The notes: generated from the letters alone by a model not told the origin. DNA of 64,000 bases from Sedimentisphaerales bacterium (GCA_050013675.1 JBEKEU010000006.1:84477-148476); one strand, 5' to 3'; shown: positions 41,173-63,661, counted from the stretch's first letter. Translations and numbers: made by a program.

Positions 41173-41376
41173 TTAGGAAGGTTTGACGTCTGTCGCTTCC
41201 GGGCCTTTCTTGCCCTGAGCGAGAGTATATTCCACCGCCTGACCTTCTTTTAGCGTCCTGAAACCCTCGGCAGCAATCTTGGAGTGATGAACAAACACAT
41301 CCTCGCTGCCGTCATCGGGAACGATAAAACCAAAACCTTTTTTCTCATTGAACCATTTTACTTTACCTGTAGCCAC
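41173..41376 (-). CDS. cspA: cold-shock protein (CspA family)
   Basis: 67 aa. GTG start 6 nt after [18 protein letters not shown] / DVFVHHS. Confidence 0.9.
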
Positions 41377-48073: not shown

Positions 48074-48107
48074 ACGAATAGTAACTCGGGCCGGGAGGTA
48101 CTAAAAT

Positions 48108-50053: not shown

Positions 50054-50205
50054 CTGTTATTCTGTTCTTGTTTTTTGGGAGTGTGCTTTGCACACCATTT
50101 TATAGGATTTCTTGTTTTGAATTTGCTTTTTTGGGTCATTTGAATTTGTTTCGTATTTAGAGTTTAGGATTTCGAATTTCGGTTGCGGCCAAAGGCCGCC
50201 AACCG

Positions 50206-50622
50206 TTACTCCCCGATAATTTTAACCAGCACTCGTTTTTTTCGTTTGCCGTCGAACTCACCGTAGAAAATCTGCTCCCAGGGACCAAAATCGAGTTTAC
50301 CGTTGGTAACCGCAACGACAACCTCCCGGCCCATAATAGTCCGCTTCAAATGCGCGTCGGCGTTGTCTTCGTAGCCGTTATGGTGATACTGCGAATACGG
50401 CTTTTCAGGCGCAAGCTTCTCAAGCCACGTCTCAAAATCCTGGTGCAGTCCCGGCTCATCGTCGTTTATAAAAACCGAAGCGGTAATGTGCATCGCGTTG
50501 ACAAGACAAAGGCCCTCTTTGACGCCCGATTCAGCAAGACATTGCTCGACCTGCGAAGTAATGTTAATCAACTCTCGCCTGGTCGCGGTATTGAACCAAA
50601 GCTCTTTCCTGTAACTTTTCAT
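50206..50622 (-). CDS. yjbQ: YjbQ/UPF0047 family protein
   Basis: 138 aa. [42 protein letters not shown]. Confidence 0.85.
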
Positions 50623-50809
50623 AAGTCCGTAACTCCTTATAACAATTGACGCTGGGAATATCTTAACAAGTTTTATCTTATGGGGAAATTAAAAGATAAG
50701 GGCGTTAAGATTATCTCTCTTGCCGATTTGGATAAAAAATTCTAACCACGCGGATTACCCCGCCAATTCTATCTTGCAAATATCTCCACATTGCTTACAC
50801 TAATTACCT

Positions 50810-52321
50810 ATGGCTAAGAAACCCGCATCCAATTCAAAGAAACCCCAAACGGCTGCCAAACCCTCCTCGCTCGTCGATACTCGCGTCATTTATTGCGGCG
50901 ATAATCTCGAACAATTGAAAAAACTCCCCGATGAATGTGTTGACCTGATTTATATCGACCCGCCCTTTAACTCAAACCGCAATTATGAGGTCTTCTGGGG
51001 CGAGACAAAGGAAAAACGCGCCTTTGAAGACCGCCACGCCTCAACGCAGGCCTATATCGACTTTATGCGGCCCCGCTGCGTCGAATTGCACCGCGTCCTC
51101 AAGAAAACCGGCTCATTCTACTACCACTGCGACTGGCACGCCTCACACTACGTCAAAATTATGCTCGACCAGATTTTCAGCGAAAACCAGTTCGTTAATG
51201 AAATTGTATGGAAGAGAAGCTCAAATCGCTCTTCAATGAGCAAGATTTTTCGTCGTGCTCACGACAGTATCTTCTTTTATACAAAAAATAGTGATTACCT
51301 TTTCAATATGCAATACAAAGAACTTTCCGAAGGTTCGCTTGAAAACTACAAGCACGAAGATGAAAAAGGAAGATATAGATACGTTCCATTGTTAGTCAGC
51401 GGAAAAAGAAATGGTGAAACAGGAAAGCTGTGGAAAGGTATAGACCCAAATCATTACGGTAAAGCTGGAATGCATTGGGTAACAATTCCTGATAAGCTTG
51501 ATGAATATGATTCAAAAGGTTTAATTTATTGGCCTGAAAAAGGAGGACTCCCAACATTAAAGTATTATTTGGAAGATAATAAAGGCGTTCCGCTATCTGA
51601 TGTTTGGGACGATATAGACCTAATCAGTTCATCTTCTCGTGAATCTTTAGGCTATCCCACACAAAAACCCTTAGCACTTCTTGATAGAATAATTGAGGCT
51701 TCAAGCAATCCAAACGATATTGTCCTCGATGCCTTTTGTGGTTGTGGGACGGCTTTAGTTGCCGCTGAAAATCTCGGCAGGCAGTGGATTGGCATTGATG
51801 TTTCGCCGACTGCCTGCCGTGTTATGGCAAAGCGTCTGCGCGATGTCTGCAAAATGAAAGAGGATGAAACGCTCTGGCGGAATGGTCGGGGCTTCGTTGT
51901 TCGAGACCTGCCCTGGACAATCGAGAAGTTGCGAGAAATCCCGCCGTTTGAGTTTGAGAACTGGGCCGTTATCGCACTGGGTGGCATTCCAAACGTTGCC
52001 AAGGTTGGCGATATGGGTATCGACGGGCGTATCTATCCGGTGTCGGCCACACCGAAAAAAGACAAAGGAGAGCTTGGCTTTATGGATGTTTGGTATCCCA
52101 TTCAGGTCAAGCAGAAAGATAAAGTCGGCAGACCCGATATCGATTCCTTCGAGGCAGTTATGACGCGTGAAGACAGAACAAAGGGGTTCTTTGTTGCCTT
52201 CGACTACTCATCCGATGCTATGAGTGAGATACAGGCGTTCTTCAAAAAGTCCGGCAAAAGCATAATCGCACTTACCGTCAAAGACATCCTCGACGAGCAA
52301 ATCGCCTATAAATTAGCATAA
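50810..52321 (+). CDS. beta-class N6-adenine/N4-cytosine DNA methyltransferase fused to a C-terminal Mrr-like (PD-(D/E)xK) nuclease domain
   Basis: 503 aa. Motif IV IYIDPPFNS lies before motif I DAFCGCGTALVAA (beta order), with YPTQKP. The last ~130 aa carry GDMGIDG ... IQVKQK ... FFVAFDYS, resembling the Mrr_cat core. Confidence 0.85.
   Translation: MAKKPASNSKKPQTAAKPSSLVDTRVIYCGDNLEQLKKLPDECVDLIYIDPPFNSNRNYEVFWGETKEKRAFEDRHASTQAYIDFMRPRCVELHRVLKKTGSFYYHCDWHASHYVKIMLDQIFSENQFVNEIVWKRSSNRSSMSKIFRRAHDSIFFYTKNSDYLFNMQYKELSEGSLENYKHEDEKGRYRYVPLLVSGKRNGETGKLWKGIDPNHYGKAGMHWVTIPDKLDEYDSKGLIYWPEKGGLPTLKYYLEDNKGVPLSDVWDDIDLISSSSRESLGYPTQKPLALLDRIIEASSNPNDIVLDAFCGCGTALVAAENLGRQWIGIDVSPTACRVMAKRLRDVCKMKEDETLWRNGRGFVVRDLPWTIEKLREIPPFEFENWAVIALGGIPNVAKVGDMGIDGRIYPVSATPKKDKGELGFMDVWYPIQVKQKDKVGRPDIDSFEAVMTREDRTKGFFVAFDYSSDAMSEIQAFFKKSGKSIIALTVKDILDEQIAYKLA
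52281..52318 (+). repeat. copy 1 of the 'methyltransferase 3'-end' repeat (functional gene end, ...KDILDEQIAYKLA*)
   Basis: AAGACATCCTCGACGAGCAAATCGCCTATAAATTAGCA. Counted by hand: 31/38 identical to copy 2 and 29/33 identical to copy 3. Confidence 0.9.
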
Positions 52322-52349
52322 GAGCATAAATCTTTAAGGAGAAAGATAT

Positions 52350-52634
52350 ATGACAAGCTCAAAAAAACTTAAAGAAATATTATCTGAGATTGAACAAGCG
52401 CCAATTTCCGCTGGATGTGGTGAGCTTAGTGAAATAATGAAAAAAGCAGGAATACTTACACCTACTGCAGGGATGGATAGCCTAAAAGACAAATGTATCA
52501 GTAGCCTGCATACTGCCATACAAACCGAAAAGATGTTCGAATCGTGTGTTTATGCAAAATGGTCTTGTTTTTGTGCGGCTGTAGCTGCAATTGCATCCTG
52601 CATCAGCGTTCTTTTGTGTTTGTTTCGAGGATAA
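52350..52634 (+). CDS. orphan small tail-anchored Cys-rich protein
   Basis: 94 aa, AT-rich. AAGGAGA RBS 8 nt upstream. C-terminal hydrophobic helix CFCAAVAAIASCISVLLCLF. No known family. Confidence 0.45.
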   Translation: MTSSKKLKEILSEIEQAPISAGCGELSEIMKKAGILTPTAGMDSLKDKCISSLHTAIQTEKMFESCVYAKWSCFCAAVAAIASCISVLLCLFRG

Positions 52635-52667
52635 TAAAATTGAAAAACTTTTATCTCTATAACCACA

Positions 52668-52705
52668 AAGACATCCTCGAATCGCAAATCGCCTACAAAG
52701 TGGCG
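52668..52705 (+). repeat. copy 2 of the 'methyltransferase 3'-end' repeat (relic, still reads ...KDILESQIAYKVA*)
   Basis: AAGACATCCTCGAATCGCAAATCGCCTACAAAGTGGCG followed by TAA. Only ~23 codons are open upstream, so it is a gene-end relic. Confidence 0.85.
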
Positions 52706-52710
52706 TAAAT

Positions 52711-53898
52711 ATGCATGAACTTCCAATCGACAAGAATAAAATAGCAACGCTCTCAAAGAAAGCTAAGCATTACAATATCTTTCCTATTTTCATGCCACGC
52801 TATCTTCCTGATATGAGTCAACCTGAAACGAGTCAACATCCCGTTTCGCAATTATTAGGCGAATTAGTAAAAGATGCTCTTGAGTTTCTTTTAATAGCTA
52901 CAGACAAAGAAGTTGAAGCTTTGCTCGACAGTTTTCCTTCCGGGATAAAAATGCTAGTTGAACATACAAGCGGTCCAAAAGAAGACCGACTAAGAAGAAT
53001 CGCTCTTTATTATATTATCGTAATGGTCGAACGTATTTATTTCTCATTCAAAGACGTAATAAATGAAGATACTAAATCAAGTGTGGTTTTAGAAATATAT
53101 CCTGAACTCAAGAACTCCTTTGATAAAGATGGTTTACTGAGTATCAATGATGATTTTATTTTACATGATGGAGGCATAGAATATAAAAAGCATATGCTCC
53201 ATTATCACCAGTTGCTTCGCAGAGGATTTACCTCGAATCCAAATTTCGATTTTACTGCTCTGTTCCTGCAATATTACCAAAAAACAAAACCAAACAATAG
53301 TTTTAGGGTTGCAATAGACCACCGCCGAATAATGACAAAGGAGTTTTATTCCCAAATTATGGAACTTGATACTTGGTTTGGCCCGGCATTCAATAAGTCC
53401 AAGATAGACGACCCAAACGAAATAGGTCTAACGGTAGTGAAAAGAAACAAGAACTCGTTATTCGAATTGACAAATAGGCTTGATCGCACAGAGTTTTTCT
53501 GGTTTTACCGCGATGGAATAAAAACCTTTGAGGTAGAGGAAATATCAGATCAAGATTACTGTTTCGATAATTACAACTTTAACAGGTATATACATAGTGA
53601 GCGCGATATTGGGAACAAAATCACTCGACACTTAGATGGTGCAGTTAAAGTTTATTTGAAGGATACATACGCTGACAGGAAAAATTCGAATATTCCTAAA
53701 GAAATGAAATGCTATAAAAAAATAAAATTGTGGCGTATAGATGGAGATATCGACCTCGATTCATGGAAAGATCTGATTTCGTTTTTCTACAAGGGCAATG
53801 AAATGATAATTGAATACTTTAATCCAGAAGAATTTAAGCAAATGTTCGAACTTCGAGTCCGTGATTTTGAAGCATGGAAACGTCAGCAAAGAGAGTAA
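52711..53898 (+). CDS. orphan 395-aa protein of unknown function (candidate defence gene)
   Basis: Long uninterrupted ORF in a strongly AT-rich stretch. Starts 2 nt after the relic stop. No motif recognisable by eye. Confidence 0.6.
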   Translation: MHELPIDKNKIATLSKKAKHYNIFPIFMPRYLPDMSQPETSQHPVSQLLGELVKDALEFLLIATDKEVEALLDSFPSGIKMLVEHTSGPKEDRLRRIALYYIIVMVERIYFSFKDVINEDTKSSVVLEIYPELKNSFDKDGLLSINDDFILHDGGIEYKKHMLHYHQLLRRGFTSNPNFDFTALFLQYYQKTKPNNSFRVAIDHRRIMTKEFYSQIMELDTWFGPAFNKSKIDDPNEIGLTVVKRNKNSLFELTNRLDRTEFFWFYRDGIKTFEVEEISDQDYCFDNYNFNRYIHSERDIGNKITRHLDGAVKVYLKDTYADRKNSNIPKEMKCYKKIKLWRIDGDIDLDSWKDLISFFYKGNEMIIEYFNPEEFKQMFELRVRDFEAWKRQQRE

Positions 53899-53955
53899 AT
53901 TTAATTAGGAAATGTAGGATTATTGGAATGCAAAAGGGGGACATTCTGTTTTTTG

Positions 53956-54016
53956 GCGATTCAAAGATAAAACCGGCAGGATAAAAAAGCTTATCGCCAT
54001 AAGGCGATAACGGCAA
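53956..54016 (+). repeat. 61-nt inverted repeat, left copy (contains 8-bp hairpin TTATCGCC-ATAA-GGCGATAA)
   Basis: Reverse complement of 60352-60412 matches at 59/61 positions (hand alignment). Confidence 0.92.
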
Positions 54017-54046
54017 TTCTCTGCGGTAAAAAAGCAGCGTGATTTT

Positions 54047-54092
54047 GCGTTACCTGTCCTGAGCAGTAGTCGAAGGAATCAGCGTCTAAAAA
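54047..54092 (-). repeat. dispersed intergenic element (inverted copy of 57898-57942)
   Basis: GCGTTACCTGTCCTGAGC..TCGAAGGAATC.GCGTC.AAAAA versus the reverse complement of 57898-57942. The 18-nt and 11-nt blocks are identical. Confidence 0.75.
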
Positions 54093-54126
54093 TATCTCTG
54101 CGTTCTCTGCGTCCTCTGCGGTGAAA

Positions 54127-54290
54127 AATCTGCCTGCCCTGCGTAGCCGCTTCGGCGAAGTAGGGTGGTTGTAAATTAGATTGACCAAAGCCGCCTAATC
54201 TGCCTGCCCTGCGACTCGTCCGGCGTAGCGCAAGCGAAGTCGGAAGCCGCTTCGGCGAAGTAGGGTGATTGTAAATTAGATTGACCAAAG
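54127..54290 (+). repeat. tandem direct repeat upstream of the ECF sigma gene
   Basis: The unit AATCTGCCTGCCCTGCG..AGCCGCTTCGGCGAAGTAGGGTG(G/A)TTGTAAATTAGATTGACCAAAG occurs at 54127-54190 and 54197-54290. The second copy carries a 31-nt insertion. Confidence 0.85.
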
Positions 54291-54371
54291 GCATAAAATA
54301 GGTGATTATATAGTGGGCTTTGTTGCGGAGGGGGTCTTGGGGTTGAAGTTTATCTGATAAGGGCCAAACGA

Positions 54372-54971
54372 GTGGCACACAGTCAGCATATAAACGTCGA
54401 AGATACGGTTTTGGTGCAGAAATGGCGTAAGGGCGACCCCAGCGCCATTGAAAAACTCGTCTGCAAATACCAGGGCCGAATCTACAACCTCATATTGAAA
54501 ATCTGCTCAAATCCCAGCGACGCCGCGGAACTAACCCAGGATACGTTTGTCAAAGTAATAGAGAACATTGGTAAGTTCGAGAGCCGCAGCGGCTTTTACA
54601 CCTGGGCGTTCAGAATCGCGGTCAACCTGACGCTGAATTACCGCAAAAGAAAGGCAACGGTCGGGTTTACCTCGCTTGACGCCGAACTGGCTGCGGGCGA
54701 CGAACAGACCAGGCAGGGTCTGGCAGCGATATTATCAGACGATAAGGCCCCTGACCCGGCCCAAATCGCCGAAAACAGGGAACTTTGCGAACTGATACAA
54801 AAAGGAATTCGCAAACTCGATGACGAACACAGAGCAATCATTGTGCTTAGGGATATCGAAGGAATGGATTACGCGCAAATCGCGGAAGTGCTGGGCACAG
54901 AATTGGGCACGGTCAAAAGCCGGCTCAGCAGGGCCCGCGCTGCGTTGAGGCAGATTCTGGAGGCCTTATGA
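54372..54971 (+). CDS. ECF (group IV) RNA polymerase sigma factor
   Basis: 199 aa, GTG start. Region 2 (DAAELTQDTFVKV, FYTWAFRIAVN) and region 4 (DYAQIAEVLGTELGTVKSRLSRAR). Confidence 0.9.
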   Translation: MAHSQHINVEDTVLVQKWRKGDPSAIEKLVCKYQGRIYNLILKICSNPSDAAELTQDTFVKVIENIGKFESRSGFYTWAFRIAVNLTLNYRKRKATVGFTSLDAELAAGDEQTRQGLAAILSDDKAPDPAQIAENRELCELIQKGIRKLDDEHRAIIVLRDIEGMDYAQIAEVLGTELGTVKSRLSRARAALRQILEAL

Positions 54972-55999
54972 ATTTTGAACAAAACCCAAAAATTGAGGAA
55001 TTGCTGAATAGTTACATCGACGACGAGTTGTCGGCTGATGAACGCTCAGAGGTGCAGCGCCTTGTCCGCGAAAACCACACTATCGCACAACGCTTACGCC
55101 AACTCGAAAGATGCAAGGCGATGGTAAGCTCTTTACCCCCCGCCGAACCGCCCGCCCAGGTAGTCGCCGGAATTAAACAACTGCTGCGAAACCATTCGGC
55201 CGGCAAAAGCGAATCTACGCATATCGAAAGCAGGCGAGGAGCAAGGCACCTGTTCGTTCGCCAGGTCATGGCGGCATCAATAATAATTGGGCTTGTGGGC
55301 ATTATGGGCGCAGTAGTGTATAGGATTGTCGGACCAGAGGAAACCGCCATGCCAATCGTCGCGGTGCAGCCGGCACCGACCGTTAAGCCAACTGCGTCGC
55401 CTGTAGCAACGAAACCGGAAGAGACAAAAAAGACGGTTGCCGTCGCCGCTGTTGAGGACGCGACAAGCATAGGCCTGTACTCGCTCCAGTTGCAGACCGC
55501 CGACTTTACCGCGGTTGACGCCTATATAAATAAGCTCCTCGAAGAAAGCCCCTGGCTGCGATACGAAGCGATAAAAGACCAGCCGGGCAAAAGCGCATAC
55601 AGAATTCTTTGCAGCAGAGGCGGCCTTGAGGCAATGATGAGCGATTTGGCGACGGTGTGGCCAAAATTCGATTCGACAACACTGATTGTGCGCACCGATA
55701 ACGTCGGCCAGGATGTCACCGTCGCGTCCGTAAAGCCGGAGCAGGTTGCCGATATTGCCAGACAGGACACAATTGCTAATCGTGTAAAACTTGCGAAGGA
55801 TTTCGCGATGCTAAACAGTGTCGAGCAGATTATGCCCGACGAAAAAATGCTCGCCGCGACGGAGCGGTCGATGCCTGAACTGACAACCATCCCCAAGCCG
55901 GTCCTGACCTCGGGCGATAAAAACGTCGTAACCGCCCCCAAAGGCGCATGGGATCAGGTTCAGGTGGATTTGAATGTCGTCGTCACTGGCCACAAATAG
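54968..55999 (+). CDS. putative anti-sigma factor (single-pass membrane protein)
   Basis: 343 aa. 4-nt overlap with the sigma gene. N-terminal LLNSYIDDELSADERSEV anti-sigma-like helix, and a TM at about residues 95-117. Confidence 0.6.
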   Translation: MNFEQNPKIEELLNSYIDDELSADERSEVQRLVRENHTIAQRLRQLERCKAMVSSLPPAEPPAQVVAGIKQLLRNHSAGKSESTHIESRRGARHLFVRQVMAASIIIGLVGIMGAVVYRIVGPEETAMPIVAVQPAPTVKPTASPVATKPEETKKTVAVAAVEDATSIGLYSLQLQTADFTAVDAYINKLLEESPWLRYEAIKDQPGKSAYRILCSRGGLEAMMSDLATVWPKFDSTTLIVRTDNVGQDVTVASVKPEQVADIARQDTIANRVKLAKDFAMLNSVEQIMPDEKMLAATERSMPELTTIPKPVLTSGDKNVVTAPKGAWDQVQVDLNVVVTGHK

Positions 56000-56206
56000 T
56001 TTAGCCCCCAATCCTGCTTGTCCTCTCGTAGCGAAGCGAAGATCCCCGCATGTCTTTGGCGGGGAGCCAGACCCCTTGGTTTCTTTGTCGGGGGTCATTC
56101 CCGCGACACAAAGCGAAGCGGAGAGCACGGAACGGAAAGCTGGAATCCACAAATAAAAAACCCCCGGATAGCCGGGGGTTCAAACTGCCGTGGGATGTGC
56201 AGTCCG

Positions 56207-57343
56207 TTATTCGAGATTCATTGCCTCAGCGAAGGTAGCCATGTTGTTGGCCCATTTCTGGGCTTCGTTTATGTCGATTTTGTCATCTTTGACTAATCGG
56301 GCAAGGTGTCTTTCCATCGTAATCATCTTCTCATCGTACCTATTCGTGGTCTTGGTCTGGAGTTGCGAATATATCTGCTCGACCTTGCCTGTTCTTATGA
56401 GATTGGCGGTGGCGTAGTTATTGTTAAGAATTTCCATCGCGGCGATTCGACCTTTGCCGTCCTTTCGCGGAATCAGTTTCTGGCTGATGATGTACGCCAG
56501 CCCCAGCGACAGCTGGTTTCGCACCTCGTTTTGCCTGCCGGACGGGAAGTAATCCAGAATGCGCATAATTGTCCCCGCGGTGTCCCTTGTGTGCAGCGTC
56601 GAGAAAACCAAATGCCCCGTCTCAGCCGCCATAAGCGTCATCGCGATTGTCTCCGCGTCGCGCATTTCGCCGACGAGGATTATGTTGGGGTCTTCGCGGA
56701 GCATCGAGCGCAGGCCGTCGATAAACGAATGTACGTCCCTGCCGATTTCTCGCTGCGAGACCAGCGAATGATTCTGCTCAAAAATATATTCAATCGGGTC
56801 TTCGATGGTGATTATCCGGCAGGCGCGTTCTTCGGTTATGCGGTTAATCAGCGATGCGATTGTCGTCGATTTGCCGGCGCCCGTCACACCTGTAACCAGG
56901 ACCAGGCCGTGTTTGCGATTTATAATGTCCTTCCAGATATCATTGGGAAATCCGACCCTCTCCACCGACGGTATATCGGTTGACAGCGCACGAATGGCCG
57001 CGCAGATGCCGTCATTTTCTTTGAAGACGTTGATTCTAAAGTGCGTTGCGGCCAGCCGATATGAGCAATCAACAGTGTGCAGCTCGCGTAATTTGTCTAT
57101 GCTTGCATCCGACAAGAGCGGCAATATTAACTGTTCGGCCATTTCCTGCGTCAACACCGGGCCTTTGAGCTTTTCGATGTCGCCATCGACGCGATAGGCG
57201 GGCGCAGCGCCAACCTTGAGGTGCAGGTCCGAAACCCGCATCGTACCCACCTGCTCAAAATAGTTGAGCATATCCTGGATACTCAACTGCCCCCTATTCT
57301 CGGTGGGATATACGCTTTTTGTGATTTCGCGAACGACCGCCAT
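56207..57343 (-). CDS. pilT: PilT-family type IV pilus retraction ATPase
   Basis: Start trimmed to MAVVREI (57343). Walker A GVTGAGKST, Asp box, Walker B, and GHLVFSTLHT His box. Confidence 0.9.
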   Translation of the reverse strand: MAVVREITKSVYPTENRGQLSIQDMLNYFEQVGTMRVSDLHLKVGAAPAYRVDGDIEKLKGPVLTQEMAEQLILPLLSDASIDKLRELHTVDCSYRLAATHFRINVFKENDGICAAIRALSTDIPSVERVGFPNDIWKDIINRKHGLVLVTGVTGAGKSTTIASLINRITEERACRIITIEDPIEYIFEQNHSLVSQREIGRDVHSFIDGLRSMLREDPNIILVGEMRDAETIAMTLMAAETGHLVFSTLHTRDTAGTIMRILDYFPSGRQNEVRNQLSLGLAYIISQKLIPRKDGKGRIAAMEILNNNYATANLIRTGKVEQIYSQLQTKTTNRYDEKMITMERHLARLVKDDKIDINEAQKWANNMATFAEAMNLE

Positions 57344-57497
57344 TTCCCGCTCCTTGTCAAAAACCATACAAATTATAAGTTCTAAAATCAGGGTTTCAAA
57401 AAGCCATGCACGCACTAATATAGGCAAGGGATGTATCGGCAAAAAATGGGGGTCGGAAAAGCTGAATTTGGCGGTTAGGCGTTGTTTTTTGGGACTG

Positions 57498-57791
57498 TTA
57501 TTTGGCTTTTGCCCCTCGACTCTGCTCGGGACGGGCGAGCCATTCGTTGAGGTTTTTGGCTAAGATTTTGACGTCCTTTTTGGTCATTATGTGGTCGATG
57601 ATTGCGGGCGGTATTTTGAGGTTGACCATCGCTTTTTGCGCACGCTCCCACAGCCGGTCTCGTCTTGCGTCGGTGTCGGCTAAGAACAACTCGCTGACTA
57701 ATTCGCTTAACTTGCCCAGGGCAATGTCGTTGCGGTTGTTGTAGTAGTTCGTTATTATGCTTTTTTGATACGCTGAGTATTCCTGTTTAGC
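57498..57791 (-). CDS. hypothetical protein
   Basis: Start trimmed to MAKQEYSAYQK (57791). 97 aa, helical, no known motif. Confidence 0.45.
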   Translation of the reverse strand, partial: AKQEYSAYQKSIITNYYNNRNDIALGKLSELVSELFLADTDARRDRLWERAQKAMVNLKIPPAIIDHIMTKKDVKILAKNLNEWLARPEQSRGAKAK

Positions 57792-57887
57792 CATATTTGA
57801 GTCCTGCGTTCTGCGTACTTTGCAACTAACTACGAACACTGAACAATGAACTAATTCTGCCTCAAACCGGCGGGAAAATCAAGCCCC

Positions 57888-57942
57888 GGCCAGACGGTTT
57901 TTTTGACGCAGATTCCTTCGACAAGCTCAGGACAGGTAACGC
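57888..57942 (+). repeat. dispersed intergenic element flanking the BrnTA module (downstream side)
   Basis: GGCCAGACGG-T7-GACGCAGATT is repeated directly at 58531-58562. The distal half is an inverted copy of 54047-54092. Confidence 0.8.
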
Positions 57943-57972
57943 GGATTTACGCTGTTTCTTTAAAAGTTTAGA

Positions 57973-58182
57973 TTATGCGACGGTCAGCTTTTTGTGTGAA
58001 TGAGCACACTGACGCAGGTAAAGATTGACTAAGTTTTGATAGGGGATACCGGTCTCTTGTGCCATTTGCTTGAAATACTCAATCACATCGACCCCAAGAC
58101 GCAGCGTAACCTGCTTTTTTAAGGTATTCGCGTAAGGATTTCGCCGGCCTTTAAGTTTTGAAAAATCGTATTCTTTTCTCAT
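57973..58182 (-). CDS. brnA: BrnA-family antitoxin
   Basis: 69 aa. RHH-like VTLRLGVDVIEYFK. 4-nt overlap downstream of brnT. Confidence 0.8.
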   Translation of the reverse strand: MRKEYDFSKLKGRRNPYANTLKKQVTLRLGVDVIEYFKQMAQETGIPYQNLVNLYLRQCAHSHKKLTVA

Positions 58183-58472
58183 AGTTCACCTCTGGCAAAT
58201 TCGCCTTTTTCCTTCGTTGTCGCCTTCCTTGCTGAAATAATCCTGATTTGCCTTCCCTGGCTGTCAAAACAATATGAAACAACCAGCAATCGCAGTCGGC
58301 AGTCAAACCCCAGCATCAGGAACCTGTCTTCATCAGCCGAATGGTCCGGGTCAAAGAACTCTTTGGCATTCTCATCAAAGAATACCGTTGAGGCGTCTTT
58401 GAAGGAAACCCCGTGTTTTTTGAGGTTCTGCGCCGCCTTTCGGTCGTCCCAGGAAAATGTTATCTTTCCCAT
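58179..58472 (-). CDS. brnT: BrnT-family ribonuclease toxin
   Basis: 97 aa. FSWDDRKAAQNLKKHGVSFKDASTVF and IRIISARKATTKE are BrnT (DUF497) signatures. Confidence 0.85.
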   Translation of the reverse strand: MGKITFSWDDRKAAQNLKKHGVSFKDASTVFFDENAKEFFDPDHSADEDRFLMLGFDCRLRLLVVSYCFDSQGRQIRIISARKATTKEKGEFARGEL

Positions 58473-58530
58473 AATTATATTATATTGCTTTCGGCATTAC
58501 GGTTCAAGGAAATTAAAAAAAATCGTCGAT

Positions 58531-58562
58531 GGCCAGACGGTTTTTTGACGCAGATTGCCTCC
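58531..58562 (+). repeat. dispersed intergenic element flanking the BrnTA module (upstream side)
   Basis: GGCCAGACGG-T6-GACGCAGATT, a direct repeat of 57888-57917. Confidence 0.8.
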
Positions 58563-58695
58563 AAACCCTTGCTAATTGCAGGGATTTCGCAATAATTCGA
58601 ATGCAAATGCAATATTATCAGGTTCCCAAGCGTCAGTAGCTGTATTGAAGAAATAAACGGCTTATCATTTTTGGAAATCGCTGATTGCGGAAAGG

Positions 58696-59388
58696 ATGGA
58701 CAATATGAAAATCGATTGCATAAAAAAGACGATGGTAATTTTGGCCGCACTGACTTTTGGTTGTGCCGTAGCTTTTACAGGGTCTGCCCCGGATCCCAAT
58801 TCGCCCGCGCACAGGAATAAAGGTCCGGCTGCACAAAGGCCCGCTCGCGAGTTTTTGCAGGAGCTTAGCGAGAAACTGAATCTCACGGACGCACAGAAGG
58901 CCGCCATCAAACCGATTCTGGCGACCGAGGCCAACGAAATAAAGGCCGTTCACCAGGATAGTTCGCTTTCAACTGAGCAAAAACAAGCGAAAATCAAAGA
59001 AATTCGGGACAGCAGCAGGGAAAAGATAAACGCGCTGCTGACACCCGAGCAGCAGAAAACATTTGCCGAAATGAAGGGTGAAGCGGGCGGCAGAATGCGT
59101 GAAGCATTCCATAACCGGCTGGCTATGATAGCTGAAAAACTGAACCTCACGGACGAACAGAAGACCGCCATCAAACCGATTCTGGCGACCGAGGTCAATG
59201 ATATGACAGCTGTCATGCAGGACAATTCTCTCTCTAAGGAACAAAAGCAAACTAAAATCGCTGGCATTCGGGAGGCCTCAGACACAAAGATAAACGCGCT
59301 GCTGACCCCCGAACAGCAGGCCAAATGGGCCAAACTAAAAGAAAACGCAAAACAGGAGCGTAATAAAAAGGATGCACCGGGCAAATAA
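58696..59388 (+). CDS. periplasmic Spy/CpxP-like (LTxxQ) repeat protein
   Basis: 230 aa. Signal peptide plus two copies of LNLTD.QK.AIKPILATE...QK..KI..IR......KINALLTPEQQ. Start may be ATG at 58705. Confidence 0.6.
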   Translation: MDNMKIDCIKKTMVILAALTFGCAVAFTGSAPDPNSPAHRNKGPAAQRPAREFLQELSEKLNLTDAQKAAIKPILATEANEIKAVHQDSSLSTEQKQAKIKEIRDSSREKINALLTPEQQKTFAEMKGEAGGRMREAFHNRLAMIAEKLNLTDEQKTAIKPILATEVNDMTAVMQDNSLSKEQKQTKIAGIREASDTKINALLTPEQQAKWAKLKENAKQERNKKDAPGK

Positions 59389-59455
59389 GCCCAGTGGCCG
59401 GCAAAAACCTGCTGACAGTTATTACCATACTGTCTGCTGAATACGACATAAAAAA

Positions 59456-59486
59456 GACAGGAGTTGAAAAGCTCCTGTCTTTTTAT
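59456..59486. terminator. bidirectional rho-independent terminator
   Basis: GACAGGAG / CTCCTGTC hairpin flanked by AAAAA and TTTTT, between convergent genes. Confidence 0.65.
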
Positions 59487-59644
59487 TTGTGCGACAAGTG
59501 GCCATGGGGGCAGGATAGCATATAAGTATATGCGTATATACTTATGGAGTGCTCCAACAGTCGAGGTTTTTGAGACACGGATTACCTATTGCGGTAAACA
59601 CTCTTTAGTTTCGCTTACATTACGTCTTCATTGCGGCAGCAGGC

Positions 59645-60040
59645 CTATGCCCACAGGTCTTGTATATCCTCATCGGACTGGAGCCAGTTTGTCGCCTTTT
59701 CAAAATCGGTGAACGCCATAACGGTAAATCTGTCGATATTCGCGCACATCTCCAAAAAAACAGCTTTGTTGAATTGTTCATCATCTCTTGCAATGACGGC
59801 GATCTTACTTCGGAATGCCTCCTTGTGTCGCCCAAGTTCAAGAATCAGCTCATGCAAGTCGGCATGATCCATGTTGCTGTGGACTTCCCGCAAGTCTAAC
59901 AGCAGCTCATGGTCTCCGATTAGATGCTCCATCTTCGCGATTTGACCGAGCACTTTTTTGCTCTCATCAAGGTCTATCTCGCCGGTGGGCTTGGCCTTTA
60001 TGAAATCCTTGGCTTGAATTATCTTATAGTTTACCCGCAT
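59645..60040 (-). CDS. hypothetical protein (possibly STAS-like)
   Basis: Start trimmed to MRVNYKIIQ (60040). The longer track ORF runs through a CACAGAG repeat element. The fold guess is weak. Confidence 0.4.
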   Translation of the reverse strand: MRVNYKIIQAKDFIKAKPTGEIDLDESKKVLGQIAKMEHLIGDHELLLDLREVHSNMDHADLHELILELGRHKEAFRSKIAVIARDDEQFNKAVFLEMCANIDRFTVMAFTDFEKATNWLQSDEDIQDLWA

Positions 60041-60351
60041 TTTCCCGCATCCTGAATAATCCTGCTTTTGTTCCACATATACTCTACTTATGGCACAGGT
60101 TTCCGACGATTTTATCCTGCCATTAAGATAATAGCAATAAGGTGGATTTTTTCGCCACAGAGAACACAGAGAGCACAGGGAATTCATTTTTTTTTAGACG
60201 CCGATTGCGCAGATTCCGCAGAGAATATGTTTAGCCCGGCAACTTTATTGCCGGGTCCCGCCTCCATAACTCAAAACTAAACACTCAACACTCAAAACTA
60301 ACATTTGACACCTCGTTTGTGAAAATCTATAGTGGGTTTGTCAGGAGGATT

Positions 60352-60412
60352 TTGCCGTTATCGCCTTATGGCGATAAGCTTTTTTGACCTGCCGGTTTTA
60401 TCTTTGAATCGC
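60352..60412 (-). repeat. 61-nt inverted repeat, right copy
   Basis: Reverse complement GCGATTCAAAGATAAAACCGGCAGGTCAAAAAAGCTTATCGCCATAAGGCGATAACGGCAA versus 53956-54016: 59/61 identical. Confidence 0.92.
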
Positions 60413-60421
60413 TCCTATGCT

Positions 60422-60910
60422 CTATTTTTGTTTCTGTTTATTGTAATATTTACACACTAAACGATCATAACGATGTATGTAGTCCCTGATATTGTGATAT
60501 TTATTTACAATGACAGCTTTAGCTTCCAGCCGTAACGTCTCATCGTCCGGAACCTGATTGATTTGTTCCAAATTTGCCGCATCTATCCTCCCTCTGAGAA
60601 AGATATTGGCTTTTTGATGCGCTTTAATTTCTACGCCAAATAAATCTATTGCCTTCATAGAAGCACTATGGATATAACCAGTCGCTTCTACTCTATCGAC
60701 CTCGATTGGAAAAGGGTTATTATTTCTAACATCAAGTATAATATTAAACTGCGACTGATACTTATCGCACCAAACTTCCACCGTGCCCTCTTGAGCGGAC
60801 ACAAAAACCTCAATGTTCTTTTTTGTTCTTCCGGGAGAATACAACCAAAAACTAATTATTTTCGGCAAATGAGAGATTAATTTTAATAAGATGTCTATGA
60901 CCCATTCCAT
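60422..60910 (-). CDS. orphan 162-aa protein (N-terminal hydrophobic helix + beta-rich domain)
   Basis: AT-rich ORF immediately downstream of the R-M pair and of repeat copy 3. NNNPFPIEVDRVEATGY loosely resembles LEA_2/WHy-type domains. No firm family. Confidence 0.5.
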   Translation of the reverse strand: MEWVIDILLKLISHLPKIISFWLYSPGRTKKNIEVFVSAQEGTVEVWCDKYQSQFNIILDVRNNNPFPIEVDRVEATGYIHSASMKAIDLFGVEIKAHQKANIFLRGRIDAANLEQINQVPDDETLRLEAKAVIVNKYHNIRDYIHRYDRLVCKYYNKQKQK

Positions 60911-60944
60911 AATTTACTTGCCACAAATAAAATACTAAATTTTG

Positions 60945-60977
60945 TGCCAGTTTGTAGGCAATTTGCTCGTCGAGGAT
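60945..60977 (-). repeat. copy 3 of the 'methyltransferase 3'-end' repeat (relic, inverted orientation)
   Basis: The minus strand reads ATCCTCGACGAGCAAATTGCCTACAAACTGGCA (ILDEQIAYKLA), 29/33 identical to 52286-52318. It overlaps the stop of the endonuclease gene. Confidence 0.85.
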
Positions 60978-61546
60978 TACGAATCGACACCGATAATGAG
61001 AACGGGGATGTCGATGTTTGAAACGCCGCGATGTTCCAAATCCCAAACGAATTGCTCAAAGTATGAAACACCGGTTGACATCTGATCCGCAAACCGCTTC
61101 ACGGGAACTATTTCCACTCCGGCGTCAATGAATCCAAGGTTTTTGAAGATTGTCATCTTGGCACAGACGTTATAGACCATGAAGGCATATTTTCCGAACT
61201 GCACTTCCACACCAAGATTTTCTTTCAAAAAATCCATTTCCCGGAATGCGCCTTTATTGAGCGTTTCCGGCTTATAGCCGGGCCGGTAATACTGTGTGGG
61301 ATACTGGCACGGAACTTTTTGACAGCTCCAGCCCGATGCAAAAAACTTCTCTTTGAATTTTTTATTGAGAGCAACAGGACTAAAAAGACGCCGACCTCGC
61401 ATCGTCTTTTCCTTACTGATTTTCTTCATACAAGCGGAACTGTCAACCTGCCGGATTACTTCATAAACCTCTTTGACTAATTTTGAGTGGTGTTTAGCGA
61501 GATACGCGTTACCCTTATTGAATGAATATTCTCCGGCAATAATCAC
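60977..61546 (-). CDS. putative type II restriction endonuclease, BglII/BstYI-like
   Basis: 189 aa. 4-nt overlap with the upstream methyltransferase. MDFLKENLGVEVQFGK gives D-X8-E-X-Q, the spacing of the BglII catalytic residues (D84, E93, Q95). Confidence 0.6.
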   Translation of the reverse strand: MIIAGEYSFNKGNAYLAKHHSKLVKEVYEVIRQVDSSACMKKISKEKTMRGRRLFSPVALNKKFKEKFFASGWSCQKVPCQYPTQYYRPGYKPETLNKGAFREMDFLKENLGVEVQFGKYAFMVYNVCAKMTIFKNLGFIDAGVEIVPVKRFADQMSTGVSYFEQFVWDLEHRGVSNIDIPVLIIGVDS

Positions 61547-62529
61547 AGAAGGGTTTCCTCCTTATCCCAAATTGCAGGACGCCGGCTTACCTTTTCTCGC
61601 CCTGTTGGCGTAAAAACCGGCTTGCCCAAGGGACGTGTCTTTAACGTTCCTTCAGCCAGCATCTGGAGACGTTTTCGGCATATATCCAGATATTTTTCTT
61701 CGCGGTCGCACCCGACAGCACGCCGATTATGTTTCGCCGCCGCGATGAGGGTTGATCCGACGCCGGCATACGGGTCGTAAATCCAGTCGTCCTCTTTGGT
61801 CAAAGCCAGAACACAACGCTCAACCAATTCCACGGGAAACTGGCAGGGATGGATAGTTTTTTCCGGATGATTCGCTTTGACGTTCGGGATGTCCCATATC
61901 AGACGCTCCCAGTCTTCAGCAACAATCTTCCAAACATCGGAAGGATTCTTGCCTAAAGGATTACCCGAAGGAAATCCTTTTTTGTCACCCTTGAAATGAC
62001 ATTTCCCAGGATACTTGGCGGGCACCCTTACCGGATCTAAGTTAAAAATATAATTATCCGACTTGGTAAACCAAAGGATAGTTTCATACCGACCGGAAAA
62101 ACGCAAACTGCAATGTAATCCATGCTCGAAATGCCAGATAATTCGATTGCGAAGTTGCAATCCCTTCGACTTGAACAAATCATAGAAATAAATATCAAGC
62201 GGAAATACTTCGCCGTTTTCAACGTAGTTGCCCACCTGCCAGCAAATGCTCCCGTCATGCTTTAGGCAACGCGCAAGTTCGCCTATTAATGGTTCCTGTT
62301 GAGCGAGGTATTCCTTCAGCGACGATTTGTGCTCATATTCCTTCCCGATGTTATAGGGAGGCGAGGTAATGATTAGCGAAAAGAAATCTTTTGGAAGAGA
62401 ACTCGCAAAAGCCAAAGCATCATCACAGGCCATCACGAGATTTGCCTCAGGCGTGAATTTATCAGATATTTCAAAGCTGCCGCCAAATAGCGACCTCATC
62501 CGTGAACTGGTTCTATATTCCCTTATCAT
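61543..62529 (-). CDS. beta-class DNA methyltransferase (N4-cytosine/N6-adenine, SPPY type)
   Basis: 328 aa. IITSPPYNIG (motif IV) precedes DPYAGVGSTLIAA (motif I). Confidence 0.88.
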   Translation of the reverse strand: MIREYRTSSRMRSLFGGSFEISDKFTPEANLVMACDDALAFASSLPKDFFSLIITSPPYNIGKEYEHKSSLKEYLAQQEPLIGELARCLKHDGSICWQVGNYVENGEVFPLDIYFYDLFKSKGLQLRNRIIWHFEHGLHCSLRFSGRYETILWFTKSDNYIFNLDPVRVPAKYPGKCHFKGDKKGFPSGNPLGKNPSDVWKIVAEDWERLIWDIPNVKANHPEKTIHPCQFPVELVERCVLALTKEDDWIYDPYAGVGSTLIAAAKHNRRAVGCDREEKYLDICRKRLQMLAEGTLKTRPLGKPVFTPTGREKVSRRPAIWDKEETLL

Positions 62530-63038
62530 AACTGTTAGTTTAAATCATGCTCGATAATTTGCAAGAGAACATTCGTAACTGCAAATCATAGGAAAAGCTT
62601 TTCTAACGAGGCCTGTCCCAGTTTTTAATGTAAAAACAAGGATTATTGCGTTTTTGAGGCCATTTTGGGCCTATTTTTTGCATGTTTTTCAGGCCGACCT
62701 TTCGCTGTAACCTTTTGCGGAATAAGGACATAAAACAGGACTAAAAAAGTCGTATAAAACAACTGTATCAAACATTTGTATGATACATTTGTTCACCAAA
62801 AGCGCGCAAGTGTTTTTTGGCAAATCCGGGAAATTCTGAAAATTTTTTTACTCCTTATACCATAACAAGTTAAGTGCATTTCGAGGCATCCCCAAAATCG
62901 GATTTTTCGTCAAAAGCGCGCAAGTTCGCGCCAATTATAGAGGGACGCGCGAAGCGGGTCGCTTCGCGAGAAAGTAGAAAGTTGAGCAGGAGAACAGGAG
63001 AAAGGGAATTTAAGATTTGAGATTTGAAAGTAACCCAC

Positions 63039-63061
63039 GCAATAAATTGCGGGGCTAAATT
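63039..63061 (+). promoter_or_regulatory. conserved upstream motif CAATAAATTG-GGGGCTAAATT (copy B)
   Basis: GCAATAAATTGCGGGGCTAAATT, 25 nt upstream of the HNH-AP2 start. Matches 37120-37142. Confidence 0.35.
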
Positions 63062-63085
63062 GCAAAGATACGAAGGGAGGATATT

Positions 63086-63661
63086 ATGTCAAGTATCACA
63101 ATCAAAGTTCCAAACTGGTTAGACCGTATTTGCGCGTGGCCGGTGGTGGCTTATCGGCAATTGAAGTTCGGCTACCCATTTCGCAAAATTCCTCTCGGCG
63201 AAGGCAGATTCACCCTTGTTGACCCCGCGCTCTTTTATCGGCTCAATATCTTCCAGTGGTACGCAGATGGAAAGAGCGAGAAAATCTATGCCGTCAGGAA
63301 TATAATATCGGCTAATGAAAATTCAAGAACTATGCGATTACACAGGGAAATTATGAATGTTCCACCAGGCATTTTGGTGGACCATAGAAACGGCGACACA
63401 TTAGACAATAGAAGAACCAATCTGCGTTTGGCAACTTGTTCACAGAATTCCTGTAACAGACAAAAGACAAAATCAAAAACCTCTTCTCGATTTATCGGCG
63501 TTTCTTTTGACAAACACAAGGTCGTGTGGACTGCCTATATCAGTTTTCACAGGAAAAGAATATGGTTAGGGTGTTTCAAAACCGAAATCGCAGCCGCGAA
63601 GGCGCATGATGAGGCGGCGAAAAAGTATCACGATGAGTTCGCCCGGCTCAACTTTGTTTAG
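63086..63661 (+). CDS. HNH endonuclease with AP2/ERF-type DNA-binding domain (homing-endonuclease-like)
   Basis: 191 aa. VDHRNGDTLDNRRTNLRLATCSQNSCN (HNH) followed by SRFIGVSFDKHKVVWTAYISFHRKRIWLGCFKTEIAAAKAHDEAAKKYHDEFARLNF (AP2). GGGAGG RBS. Confidence 0.85.
   Translation: MSSITIKVPNWLDRICAWPVVAYRQLKFGYPFRKIPLGEGRFTLVDPALFYRLNIFQWYADGKSEKIYAVRNIISANENSRTMRLHREIMNVPPGILVDHRNGDTLDNRRTNLRLATCSQNSCNRQKTKSKTSSRFIGVSFDKHKVVWTAYISFHRKRIWLGCFKTEIAAAKAHDEAAKKYHDEFARLNFV

Follow-up and report, generated by a model that had tools for sequence, protein, structure and literature searches.

The DNA analysed here (the window, 64,000 nt) contains two nearly identical 61-nt sequences that face each other across 6.3 kb, and the question raised by this locus is why they do so. 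A sequence-only reading had proposed that they could be a 3' boundary shared by two gene cassettes, substrates for inversion of the DNA between them, or a MITE-like element. From an analysis based throughout on metagenome assemblies and MAGs, we consider it probable that the arms are the tails of two separately acquired, portable defence modules, whose cargo could be swapped through homology in the tail on one side and in a methyltransferase (MTase) gene or its 3' end on the other.

The inverted repeat and the element that contains it

The inverted repeat is real, with positions 53956–54016 matching the reverse complement of 60352–60412 at 59 of 61 nt (97% complementary according to a repeat finder, which places the arms 6335 nt apart). 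A pattern search of the 64-kb window allowing up to 3 mismatches returned the two arm sites only (0 and 2 mismatches), while the chance expectation, from 100 dinucleotide-preserving shuffles of the window, is 0. Both arms contain the 8-bp hairpin TTATCGCC-ATAA-GGCGATAA, and each lies beside an open reading frame at the distance first noted, the left arm beginning 57 nt past the stop of a 395-aa frame (end 53898) and the right arm 9 nt away from the end (60422) of a 162-aa frame. These frames had been described as orphans, which does not hold, since the former has more than 235 homologues and the latter 16. The length of 61 nt was also an underestimate, as homology among copies reaches about 53931–54016 on the left and 60344–60414 on the right.

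We refer to this longer sequence as E. By sequence comparison, a family of modular loci in uncultured peat and fen Phycisphaerae (Planctomycetota) has E as its conserved non-coding 3' end. The left copy (53931–54016, + strand) closes the left defence module on its 3' side and is made up of a weak A/T-flanked segment (53931–53955), the conserved core GCGATTCAAAGATAAAACCGGCAGG, an A6 run and the hairpin (53991–54010), and the A-run is invariant in 10 copies. The right copy (60344–60414, − strand), which forms the 3' end of the right defence module, has its hairpin at 60358–60377 and a tail, AAATCCTCC, that is common to other E copies. An Rfam search gave no match.

A third copy lies about 3.1 kb past the right end of the window (L011:3784–3875) and carries a 23-nt insertion in the hairpin loop, which makes 3 copies in the ~71 kb of this genome that were covered. 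An exact 21-mer of E gave 5 matches in 185,579 GTDB species genomes, including one in a complete 2.6-Mb chromosome. A 1.31-Mb sample of related DNA, chosen independently of E, holds two occurrences, both downstream of the border sequences P and J described below. Of the 15 distinct copies for which enough upstream sequence exists, 13 are on the same strand as J and 0.5–2.2 kb downstream of it; the other two, in L018 and at L011:3784, have neither P nor J upstream. E is not obligatory, being missing from L059 and also from L033 (over 6.6 kb), and five loci retain just its 5' half.

These figures bear on the idea that E is an ordinary dispersed intergenic repeat (REP, BIME or MITE-like) whose adjacency to the cassettes is coincidental. 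The intergenic DNA of these genomes is crowded with short repeated modules and E does contain a palindrome, and the lack of P and J at two copies, like the loop insertion in the third, could be read in the same sense. However, E is low-copy, its ends (GCGATTCAAAG... and ...GGCAAAATCC) are not inverted copies of one another, so that terminal inverted repeats were not found, and no target duplication is common to the flanks of 10 copies. Together with the same-strand position downstream of J in 13 of 15 copies, and with the existence of empty sites that lack E (see below), this makes a coincidental adjacency very unlikely, and the suggestion of a MITE-like element is not sustained.

A role in inverting the 6.3-kb segment, whether by a programmed switch or through recurrent homologous events, is most improbable for the repeats. 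An inverted identity of 59/61 would be enough in principle for RecA-mediated inversion, and three contigs break within the repeat, but such breaks at a three-copy repeat are predicted by assembly alone. The only orientation in the 18 assembled contigs spanning a copy, which come from at least nine samples, is that of the window, as scored on consensus assemblies, which are insensitive to rare RecA-dependent inversion and to minor subpopulations. Relative to UPF0047 and x1036, the core block keeps this orientation in more than 10 related species, and a Pfam search of all ORFs in 45044–63661 and in the extension L011 identified no invertase or recombinase gene. In addition, the putative module promoters are outside the segment, so that flipping it would alter no obvious expression. 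A composite transposon was rejected separately, as no transposase domain was found with Pfam in or beside the arms.

Architecture of the modules

The proposal of a shared 3' boundary, by which two cassettes have identical borders and different cargo, was borne out and can be generalised to about 14 further loci, in other genomes and with unrelated cargo. The modular locus is known from ~17 distinct places in about a dozen uncultured Phycisphaerae, and its order is P, then usually an MTase-Mrr gene but elsewhere another restriction-modification pair or nothing, then J, a variable cargo of 1–3 genes, and E. Wherever P, J and E occur they keep this order on a single strand, with unrelated cargo between J and E. 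Thirteen distinct loci with J and E are on record, and P is also present in 9 of these.

The 5' border P (50765–50844, + strand), delimited with nhmmer and an alignment across 9 loci, comprises TTGCAA and TACACT separated by 16 nt, followed by 8 nt and by the beginning of the MTase-Mrr gene (ATG and 12 codons). The insertion edge relative to the empty site of L068 is at position 50765, that is, at P. P is a putative promoter by its pattern, but it agrees with the sigma-70 consensus at only 8 of 12 positions and was not flagged in the scan that flagged the E hairpin as terminator-like. The right-arm variant, P' (62534–62568, − strand), retains only the -35 and -10 part, and its closest counterparts are the P variants of L035 and L025 rather than the left-arm P.

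The lead gene of the left module (50810–52321, + strand) encodes a 503-aa protein in which an N6_N4_Mtase domain is fused to an Mrr-like nuclease domain (Pfam, PADLOC). A conservation profile of 7 such genes revealed that their mid-part, presumably the target-recognition domain, is swapped between loci. In the right arm this gene is replaced by a type II restriction-modification pair (60977–62529, − strand; Pfam), consisting of a 328-aa N6_N4 MTase (61543–62529) and a 189-aa BglII-like endonuclease (60977–61546).

J corresponds to the last 40–70 nt of the MTase gene up to the stop codon, directly before the cargo. The methyltransferase-end repeat that had been noted earlier exists in three copies (52279–52321, 52666–52708 and the reverse complement of 60942–60977), which belong to three occurrences of J. 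J1 (52251–52321, + strand) covers the last 24 codons and stop of the MTase-Mrr gene and is the conserved 5' border of the cargo; J2 (52642–52708, + strand) is non-coding and ends 2 nt ahead of the next cargo start codon; and the right arm has a remnant (60943–60980, − strand), truncated at ATCCTC, exactly at the stop of the BglII-like gene. Conservation of J does not exceed that of the remaining non-recognition part of the MTase gene, which means that J may have persisted passively.

The first cargo gene of the left module, c94 (52350–52634, + strand), encodes a small protein with a C-terminal hydrophobic segment. J1 and J2 are direct repeats around c94, and loci without this gene have one J. 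The same cassette, 95–97% identical, occurs in L025 and L034, and c94 with J2 is found behind different neighbours in the window and in these two loci. The second gene, c395 (52711–53898, + strand), belongs to a widespread uncharacterised protein family; its structure model is confident and has no match to a known fold, and a homologue follows J in L059. In the right module, c162 (60422–60910, − strand) encodes a small protein with an N-terminal hydrophobic segment, which accompanies a BglII-type restriction-modification pair in another organism and has homologues that follow J in L150 and L147. Across loci, cargo matches include AbiJ/Abi_C-HEPN, AbiU2, AbiTii, GIY-YIG+RAMA (PDC-S14), PDC-S13 and a BglII-type restriction-modification system, an enrichment in known defence genes as in defence islands; about half of the cargo genes have no match at all, and one is a sugar hydrolase.

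In both E copies the hairpin with T6 was flagged as terminator-like on the strand that reads into the module, antisense to the cassette genes (54010→53991, − strand, and 60358→60377, + strand); its stem has 8 bp, 4 of them GC pairs, and its tail is GC+T6. Only on this antisense strand is a G+C-containing hairpin directly followed by a U-run, as in intrinsic terminators, and E may be an outward-facing terminator or insulator. It resembles intrinsic terminators and REP-type 3' hairpins in its 8-bp stem, its 4-nt loop, its T6 on one strand and its position at the end of a gene block. It differs from them in that the T-run is opposite to the cassette-gene strand and the hairpin forms part of a longer conserved element, with a 26-nt core that has no terminator role. 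A further difference is the lack of covariation: 91% of cells are paired among 10 copies, with no compensatory changes, and 5 of the 10 have an uncompensated mismatch at pair 4. The upstream A/T-flanked segment folds no better than shuffled sequences.

Genomic slots and acquisition

The two modules of the window are convergent and occupy neighbouring variable slots, UPF0047|ECF (slot 1) and h113|x1036 (slot 2). The segment between the arms had been called host-like, which is correct for the ECF sigma factor, anti-sigma factor, PilT-like ATPase and h113 (54372–57839), core genes that are syntenic in more than 10 related genomes. It is not correct for the BrnT/BrnA toxin-antitoxin, the LTXXQ protein and the 180-aa STAS-like gene (57973–60187), which are contents of the variable slot 2 and are missing where this slot is empty. 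An HNH-AP2 endonuclease gene (63086–63661, + strand), divergent from the right module and just upstream of the core gene x1036, also varies in presence among relatives.

Slot 1 is empty (195–365 nt) in L068, L072, L074 and L075, and slot 2 in L074–L076. E was not found in any of these empty sites, which indicates that it comes in with the insert. Across 15 relatives the slots are empty, filled with a P-J-E module or otherwise filled, so that a conserved frame with empty sites is present, as in defence hotspots. The GC content of the module is 0.40–0.43, as compared with 0.51–0.55 for the core. In the nearest relative with a slot 1 module, SPRUCE 119, the flanks are ~96% identical, and the module has the same P, J and E but another MTase recognition domain and another cargo. 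The left arm of the window has P variant 1 and the right arm variant 2, which is shared with L035 and L025, and the right E is identical to that of L025 at 63 of 63 positions. The differing P variants and this identity point to separate acquisitions, and not to an internal duplication.

On this reading, both modules are horizontally acquired phage-defence gene units, pointing at one another and separated by a few core genes. We propose that two modules from different sub-lineages would have entered two adjacent variable intergenic slots independently, and because they converge, their identical tails form an inverted repeat around the core genes. The antisense hairpin and T6 of E could then act as an insulator, blocking transcription that enters the module from the neighbouring host DNA.

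Possible cargo exchange and comparison with known systems

Short conserved homology would bracket the cargo, supplied by E at one end and by J or the MTase gene at the other, and the cargo could be exchanged between modules and genomes by homologous or homology-facilitated recombination, with no need for a dedicated recombinase. Judging from the sequences, homologous exchange through anchors of 40–75 nt is plausible.

Two other origins of the borders were considered. J and E could be the recognition sites of a site-specific system, an integron-like platform that captures and excises defence cassettes at both. A promoter, cassettes each after a 40–70-nt repeat, and an end element do resemble an array; the hexamer ATCCTC is both the left edge of the truncated right-arm J and the right edge of E, and GGCGAT[TA] is present in E and, inverted, in J. 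In L147 an E-like 5' half is joined to a full J between two cargo genes, but at a 6-nt microhomology (CCGGCA), consistent with an ordinary deletion. We regard this platform as unlikely, since neither the ~5 kb around each arm nor the other examined loci contain an integrase, resolvase or transposase, and J is simply the 3' coding end of the lead gene, without single-strand structure on either strand relative to shuffles (z −0.07 to −1.5). Moreover, the right half of J never follows E, and the left edges of J remnants vary by locus (profile positions 4, 28 and 33). By inspection, E has one simple hairpin, and the RYYYAAC/GTTRRRY boxes of attC sites were not found.

Alternatively, E could be a decayed duplicate of the MTase-Mrr 3' end, produced when cargo was inserted with long target duplication, so that J and E would be old direct repeats. 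J1 and J2 around c94 are exactly such a duplication, E is colinear with the last 90 nt of MTase genes (TTCAAA, CCGGC, AAAGC.TA.TCGC, CAAA, ATCCTC) in pairwise alignments that outscore most shuffles (9–55 of 1000 reach the score of the best pairs), and E-like and J sequences are joined in register in L147. Nevertheless, even when permissive settings are used, the E profile matches none of the 3' ends of 9 real MTase genes, and the pairwise scores are of marginal significance and uncorrected for multiple comparisons. This origin for E is unlikely.

The separately acquired modules can be compared with three known kinds of system. Chromosomal integrons store defence cassettes (bioRxiv 10.1101/2024.07.02.601686), and like their arrays the P-J-E loci have one promoter-like sequence followed by short cassettes, each bounded by a repeated element, with a cargo enriched in compact defence genes and unknowns. 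By contrast, no IntI lies near the loci for which genes were called, imperfect palindromes of the attC type are lacking, J being unstructured coding sequence, and an array holds only 1–3 cassettes.

Restriction-modification genes are known to insert with long target duplication, leaving direct repeats of tens to hundreds of bp (Furuta et al. 2010). As in these mobile units, restriction-modification genes are here associated with direct and inverted repeats, c94 lies between J1 and J2 as a 43–67-nt target duplication, the MTase and BglII-like pair substitutes for the MTase-Mrr gene, and recognition domains differ in genes that are otherwise 85–97% identical. In contrast, the inverted repeats are the tails of two facing units and not transposon-like flanks, and what varies is for the most part non-restriction defence cargo located after the lead gene.

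Defence hotspots whose flanks are conserved and whose cargo varies have been described in P2/P4 (Rousset et al. 2022, PMC9122126) and as core defence hotspots of Pseudomonas aeruginosa (Johnson et al. 2023, PMC10250203). The P-J-E modules share with them a fixed place in a conserved frame, defence genes that differ between genomes, low GC and empty sites in some relatives. They differ in having no phage, satellite or integrase context, and in that the frame is not made of flanking genes but is a small portable unit of short non-coding and 3'-coding pieces (P, J and E), which occupies several different slots of the chromosome and is present in two copies in one genome. The P-J-E module can be placed with defence hotspots and mobile restriction-modification units, as a variant of these known kinds.

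The inverted repeat and its copies

The two arms of the repeat lie at 53956-54016 (plus strand) and 60352-60412 (minus strand), are 61 nt long and 97% complementary, and stand 6335 nt apart, in agreement with the sequence-only reading. Both arms carry the hairpin that had been described, TTATCGCC-ATAA-GGCGATAA, and they lie 57 nt and 9 nt past the stop codons of the 395-aa and 162-aa ORFs, respectively. The repeat reported for the methyltransferase end was likewise recovered, in three copies (52279-52321, 52666-52708 and the reverse complement of 60942-60977). In a pattern search allowing 3 mismatches, the 61-nt element, here called E, occurs at only two sites in the 64-kb window and at none in 100 shuffles. 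A third copy is present just outside the window, in the extension past its right end (L011:3784-3875), in the orientation of the right copy and with a 23-nt insertion in the hairpin loop; it forms the 3' end of a further AT-rich block (GC 0.39) containing a 188-aa ORF, an 83-aa ORF, an SDH/ClpP-like protease and a 73-aa ORF. Another inverted repeat of the window, I1 (29661-29755 and 41282-41376; 95 nt, 80%), is the conserved start of two cold-shock (CspA-like) paralogues.

The 5' half of E, TTCAAAGATAAAACCGGCAGG, is found once in each of five GTDB species genomes and on 10 JGI contigs, and is more widespread than the hairpin half, for which an exact 25-mer gave no match in the GTDB genomes. 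Scans of a viral collection with E and with the methyltransferase-end repeat, J, returned no matches for either, and there is thus no phage link. Exact proteins of the window were found on metagenome contigs from peat and fen samples, one of them an ENA contig of 163.8 kb, and the DNA-word scans matched only MAGs labelled Phycisphaerales or Sedimentisphaerales, together with a few Pirellulales. The host is an uncultured planctomycete of the class Phycisphaerae.

Homologous inversion of the segment between the arms had been put forward as one explanation of the repeat, and found no support, as the 18 contigs crossing a copy, which come from at least 9 samples, all show the arrangement of the window (8 contigs cross the left copy, 6 the right copy, and the rest come from exact-protein look-ups). 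The look-ups, made with the exact methyltransferase (MTase), ECF sigma and 131-aa proteins, gave no other arrangement, and three short contigs end inside the repeat, as expected for a three-copy repeat. The orientation of the core block relative to the UPF0047 gene and a 1036-aa gene is identical in all syntenic relatives, and no recombinase was found near the repeat arms. A MITE-like or REP-like element is not supported either: E is low-copy, has neither terminal inverted repeats nor target duplications, and keeps a fixed orientation relative to its upstream genes. Two convergent insertions have produced the inverted repeat as a side effect; on the modular reading, this removes the suggestion of a DNA switch from the original question.

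Modular layout and cargo

Comparison of the E-bearing loci with the window, using BLAST and nhmmer profiles, gave a layout of five parts. The 5' border, P (window 50765-50844), consists of TTGCAA, a 16-nt spacer, TACACT, 8 nt and an ATG with the first 12 codons, and is followed by a lead gene, usually an MTase-Mrr fusion. J comprises the last 40-70 nt of the lead gene, including the stop codon, and 1-3 unrelated cargo genes stand between J and E, which often has about 25 nt of extra sequence upstream and the tail CAAAATCC downstream. The left arm, on the plus strand, encodes a 503-aa fusion of an N6_N4 DNA methyltransferase and an Mrr-like nuclease, followed by ORFs of 94 aa (c94) and 395 aa (c395) and by E. 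The right arm, on the minus strand, has the same layout, with a complete type II restriction-modification pair (a 328-aa methyltransferase and a 189-aa BglII-like endonuclease) in the MTase-Mrr position; a J remnant begins exactly at the endonuclease stop codon and is followed by the 162-aa ORF (c162) and E. Its P variant is reduced to the -35 and -10 part and is closest to those of two other loci, L035 and L025. Both arms are AT-rich, with a GC content of 0.40-0.43 versus 0.51-0.55 in the surrounding genes, and between them lie genes for an ECF sigma factor, an anti-sigma factor, a PilT-like ATPase, a 113-aa protein (h113), BrnT/BrnA, an LTXXQ protein and a 180-aa STAS-like protein.

The same layout recurs at other loci with unrelated cargo, and the interpretation of the repeat as a shared 3' border is therefore right. 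MTase and J are followed by a 231-aa gene and E in L019, by an AbiJ-like gene, a 179-aa gene and E in L023, and by a GIY-YIG-RAMA gene and E in the genome SPRUCE 119 (L067), while L025 has MTase, J, a c94 gene 97% identical to that of the window, a further J, genes of 200 aa and 229 aa, and E. In four loci (L020, L021, L037 and L024) the MTase body is gone: P runs almost directly into J, ahead of cargo and E. A scan with J alone identified 11 loci in about 8 genomes (1-3 per genome); in most of those for which downstream DNA was available, E or its 5' half follows at a distance of 0.8-2.2 kb. Wherever P, J and E are present, they share one strand and are collinear.

Annotation of the cargo of the compared loci with Pfam and PADLOC revealed AbiJ/Abi_C-HEPN (L023), HEPN_AbiU2 (L021), AbiTii (L024 and L040), GIY-YIG+RAMA, which corresponds to PDC-S14 (L024, L033 and L067), and PDC-S13 (L024, E 9e-121). 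Another cargo gene encodes a 3-keto-disaccharide hydrolase; for about half of the cargo genes, neither resource gave a match. The cargo ORFs of the window had been called orphans, a label that does not hold: c395 (52711-53898) has more than 235 homologues and c162 has 16. The c395 homologues, all unnamed, share 50-90% identity and come from cyanobacteria, acidobacteria, Poribacteria and others; in other phyla their neighbour genes are unrelated. The AlphaFold model of c395 is confident (pLDDT 84, pTM 0.77), Foldseek found nothing significant for it in PDB or BFVD, and the protein has no match in Pfam, PADLOC or NCBIfam. Its predicted structure may represent a new fold, and the context makes it a candidate stand-alone defence gene. 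One homologue of c162 follows the same MTase-BglII pair, beside an HNH-AP2 gene, in another organism. Some cassettes recur behind different neighbours, which fits an exchange of cargo: c94 recurs together with J2, the second J of the left arm, and both c395 and c162 recur after J, c395 with the same type of junction, TAA-AT-ATG.

Chromosomal slots and empty sites

Relatives of the ECF sigma gene, fetched with 10-kb flanks, define a backbone shared by more than 10 genomes, with the order AsmA, BrkB, LysE, UPF0047, slot 1, ECF, anti-sigma, PilT, h113, slot 2 and the 1036-aa gene, the two slots being variable intergenic sites. Three relatives, L072, L074 and L075, have a slot 1 of 195 nt; in L068, with an ECF protein of 96% identity, its length is 365 nt. 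A P-J-E module occupies this slot in the window and in SPRUCE 119, and other genes occupy it elsewhere. Slot 2 is 140-310 nt long in L074-L076, and in the window it contains BrnTA, the LTXXQ gene, the 180-aa gene, the right-hand module and an HNH-AP2 gene. The genes between the repeat copies had been described as host-like, which is correct for the core from ECF to h113; everything else between the copies is variable. No E was found in the empty slots of the relatives, indicating that E comes in with the inserted DNA. In comparison with L068, the insertion and the P homology start at the same position on the left, 50765; on the right, the limit of the insertion is obscured by other short repeats, among them a duplication of 100 nt that involves the -35 part of the ECF promoter. 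The flanks of SPRUCE 119 and the window are about 96% identical; between them P, both ends of the MTase gene and E align, whereas the middle of the MTase gene and all of the cargo differ.

Several further features were noted in and around these slots. A 46-nt direct repeat (54145-54190 and 54245-54290, 98% identical; three copies in SPRUCE 119) duplicates the -35 part of the ECF sigma promoter (TTGACC-17-GATTAT, 54281-54309) and surrounds a REP-like palindrome. Short recurring modules such as CAGCGTCTAAAAA, CTCTGCGGTGAAAAA and GCTGTTTTCTGTCATCGGTCATCCGTC are numerous in the intergenic DNA of these Phycisphaerae, and were seen at 54017-54140 and 60140-60215 of the window and in intergenic regions of L018, L020, L038 and L059. 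The BrnT/BrnA pair (57973-58472) is an insertion relative to SPRUCE 119, the closest syntenic relative, in which h113 is directly followed by LTXXQ, and the LTXXQ gene (58870-59339) has an internal tandem duplication with a 264-nt period (D2 and D4, 78-80% identical). The HNH-AP2 endonuclease gene (63086-63661) behaves like a homing-endonuclease insertion: some relatives (compared in L068, L070, L072, L073 and L077) have it directly upstream of the core 1036-aa gene, L074-L076 lack it, and in several genomes it is back to back with a methyltransferase. The 1036-aa protein (L011:3960-7070) is a core gene of the lineage, with 74-91% identity in syntenic relatives and no match in Pfam, NCBIfam or PADLOC. 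The third and right copies of E were also considered as attL and attR of a 6.6-kb island, which was rejected because this core gene lies between them and is syntenic in relatives lacking E.

Border elements, proposed cargo exchange and known systems

Read antisense to the cassette genes, the hairpin of E leads into GC and T6, and both copies were flagged as terminator-like. The matching A-run does not vary among 10 copies; in the stem, no compensatory changes were seen and half of the copies have a mismatch. The best-conserved part of E is a 26-nt core, GCGATTCAAAGATAAAACCGGCAGG. A forward terminator upstream of E was discarded: the A/T-flanked segment there folds no better than shuffles and was not flagged in L011. 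In Rfam, neither the window and L011 at the gathering threshold nor three sub-regions at E<=10 gave anything beyond two tRNAs and chance-level matches, and no family fits E. Judged from its sequence, E could be an end or insulator piece that blocks antisense transcription from the host side into the cargo. Near the right copy, a near-consensus promoter-like site (60305-60333, plus strand; TTGACA-17-TATAGT, 11/12) is aimed into the terminator-like hairpin; the predicted RNA, of about 45 nt, would be antisense to the module tail, and the site is absent at the left copy.

The MTase-Mrr gene (window 50810-52321) was compared with its homologues in L019, L025, L034-L036 and L041. At the nucleotide level the seven full genes are 87-97% identical over codons 1-120, except for codons 13-24 (69%), and 68-96% identical over codons 300-516, but only about 50% identical over codons 133-300, which looks like swapping of target-recognition domains between otherwise near-identical genes. 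The entire non-recognition part of the gene is 85-97% identical between loci, so that J is not exceptionally conserved and a hyper-conserved island was dismissed; J is the end of a conserved gene, which persists before the cargo as a remnant after deletion or replacement of the gene. We propose that E, together with J and the MTase gene, would supply the flanking homology that allows cargo to be replaced.

The modules might instead form a site-specific, integron-like system, a possible reading against which stands that neither a recombinase nor a structured site was found; an attC-like folded J is ruled out by the lack of any single-strand structure in it. One locus (L147:5860-5970, ENA ERZ27248148 k141_6204665) bears on this point, as the sole case of an E-like sequence upstream of J. 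There, the 5' half of an E-like sequence runs in register into a full J, the two being joined at a shared CCGGCA, with a 322-aa cargo gene on one side and a c162 homologue on the other. The junction may be an inter-cassette site; a microhomology deletion is the simpler reading. A minor rival on the origin of E, that it is a decayed duplicate or relic of the MTase 3' end, draws on a marginal pairwise similarity, but the profile search was negative. Internal duplication of the arms was also considered. The P variants of the two arms differ and the right E matches the E of L025 without a difference, so that by sequence neither arm is a recent copy of the other.

If the modular reading is true, uncultured peat planctomycetes carry a compact portable defence slot, with borders of tens of nucleotides rather than whole flanking genes, and offer a natural case for studying how defence cargo might be exchanged without integrases. 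P, J and E would then be a handle to harvest candidate defence genes from metagenomes, including the c395 family, c162, c94, c229 and others. In its strongest form, this reading takes P, J and E as a previously undescribed integrase-less cassette platform, a portable expression slot that captures and shuffles defence genes and moves as a unit, which we regard as rather unlikely. Such a slot would start with a promoter and a lead restriction-modification gene, followed by a coupling sequence and an end element; defence genes would be captured and shuffled via the short conserved borders, and the whole unit would move between chromosomal slots. Either the HNH-AP2 endonuclease encoded nearby or the nuclease activity of the lead gene itself might aid this movement.

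Defence hotspots with conserved flanks (PMC9122126, PMC10250203) and integron arrays that store defence cassettes (10.1101/2024.07.02.601686) have been described, and the P/J/E modules share features with each. In contrast to both, the P/J/E frame is a small portable unit with short non-coding borders, it occurs in several slots, and no recombinase gene was found in or beside any of the loci examined. Set against these systems, the module family is a modestly novel variant of known defence-island biology.
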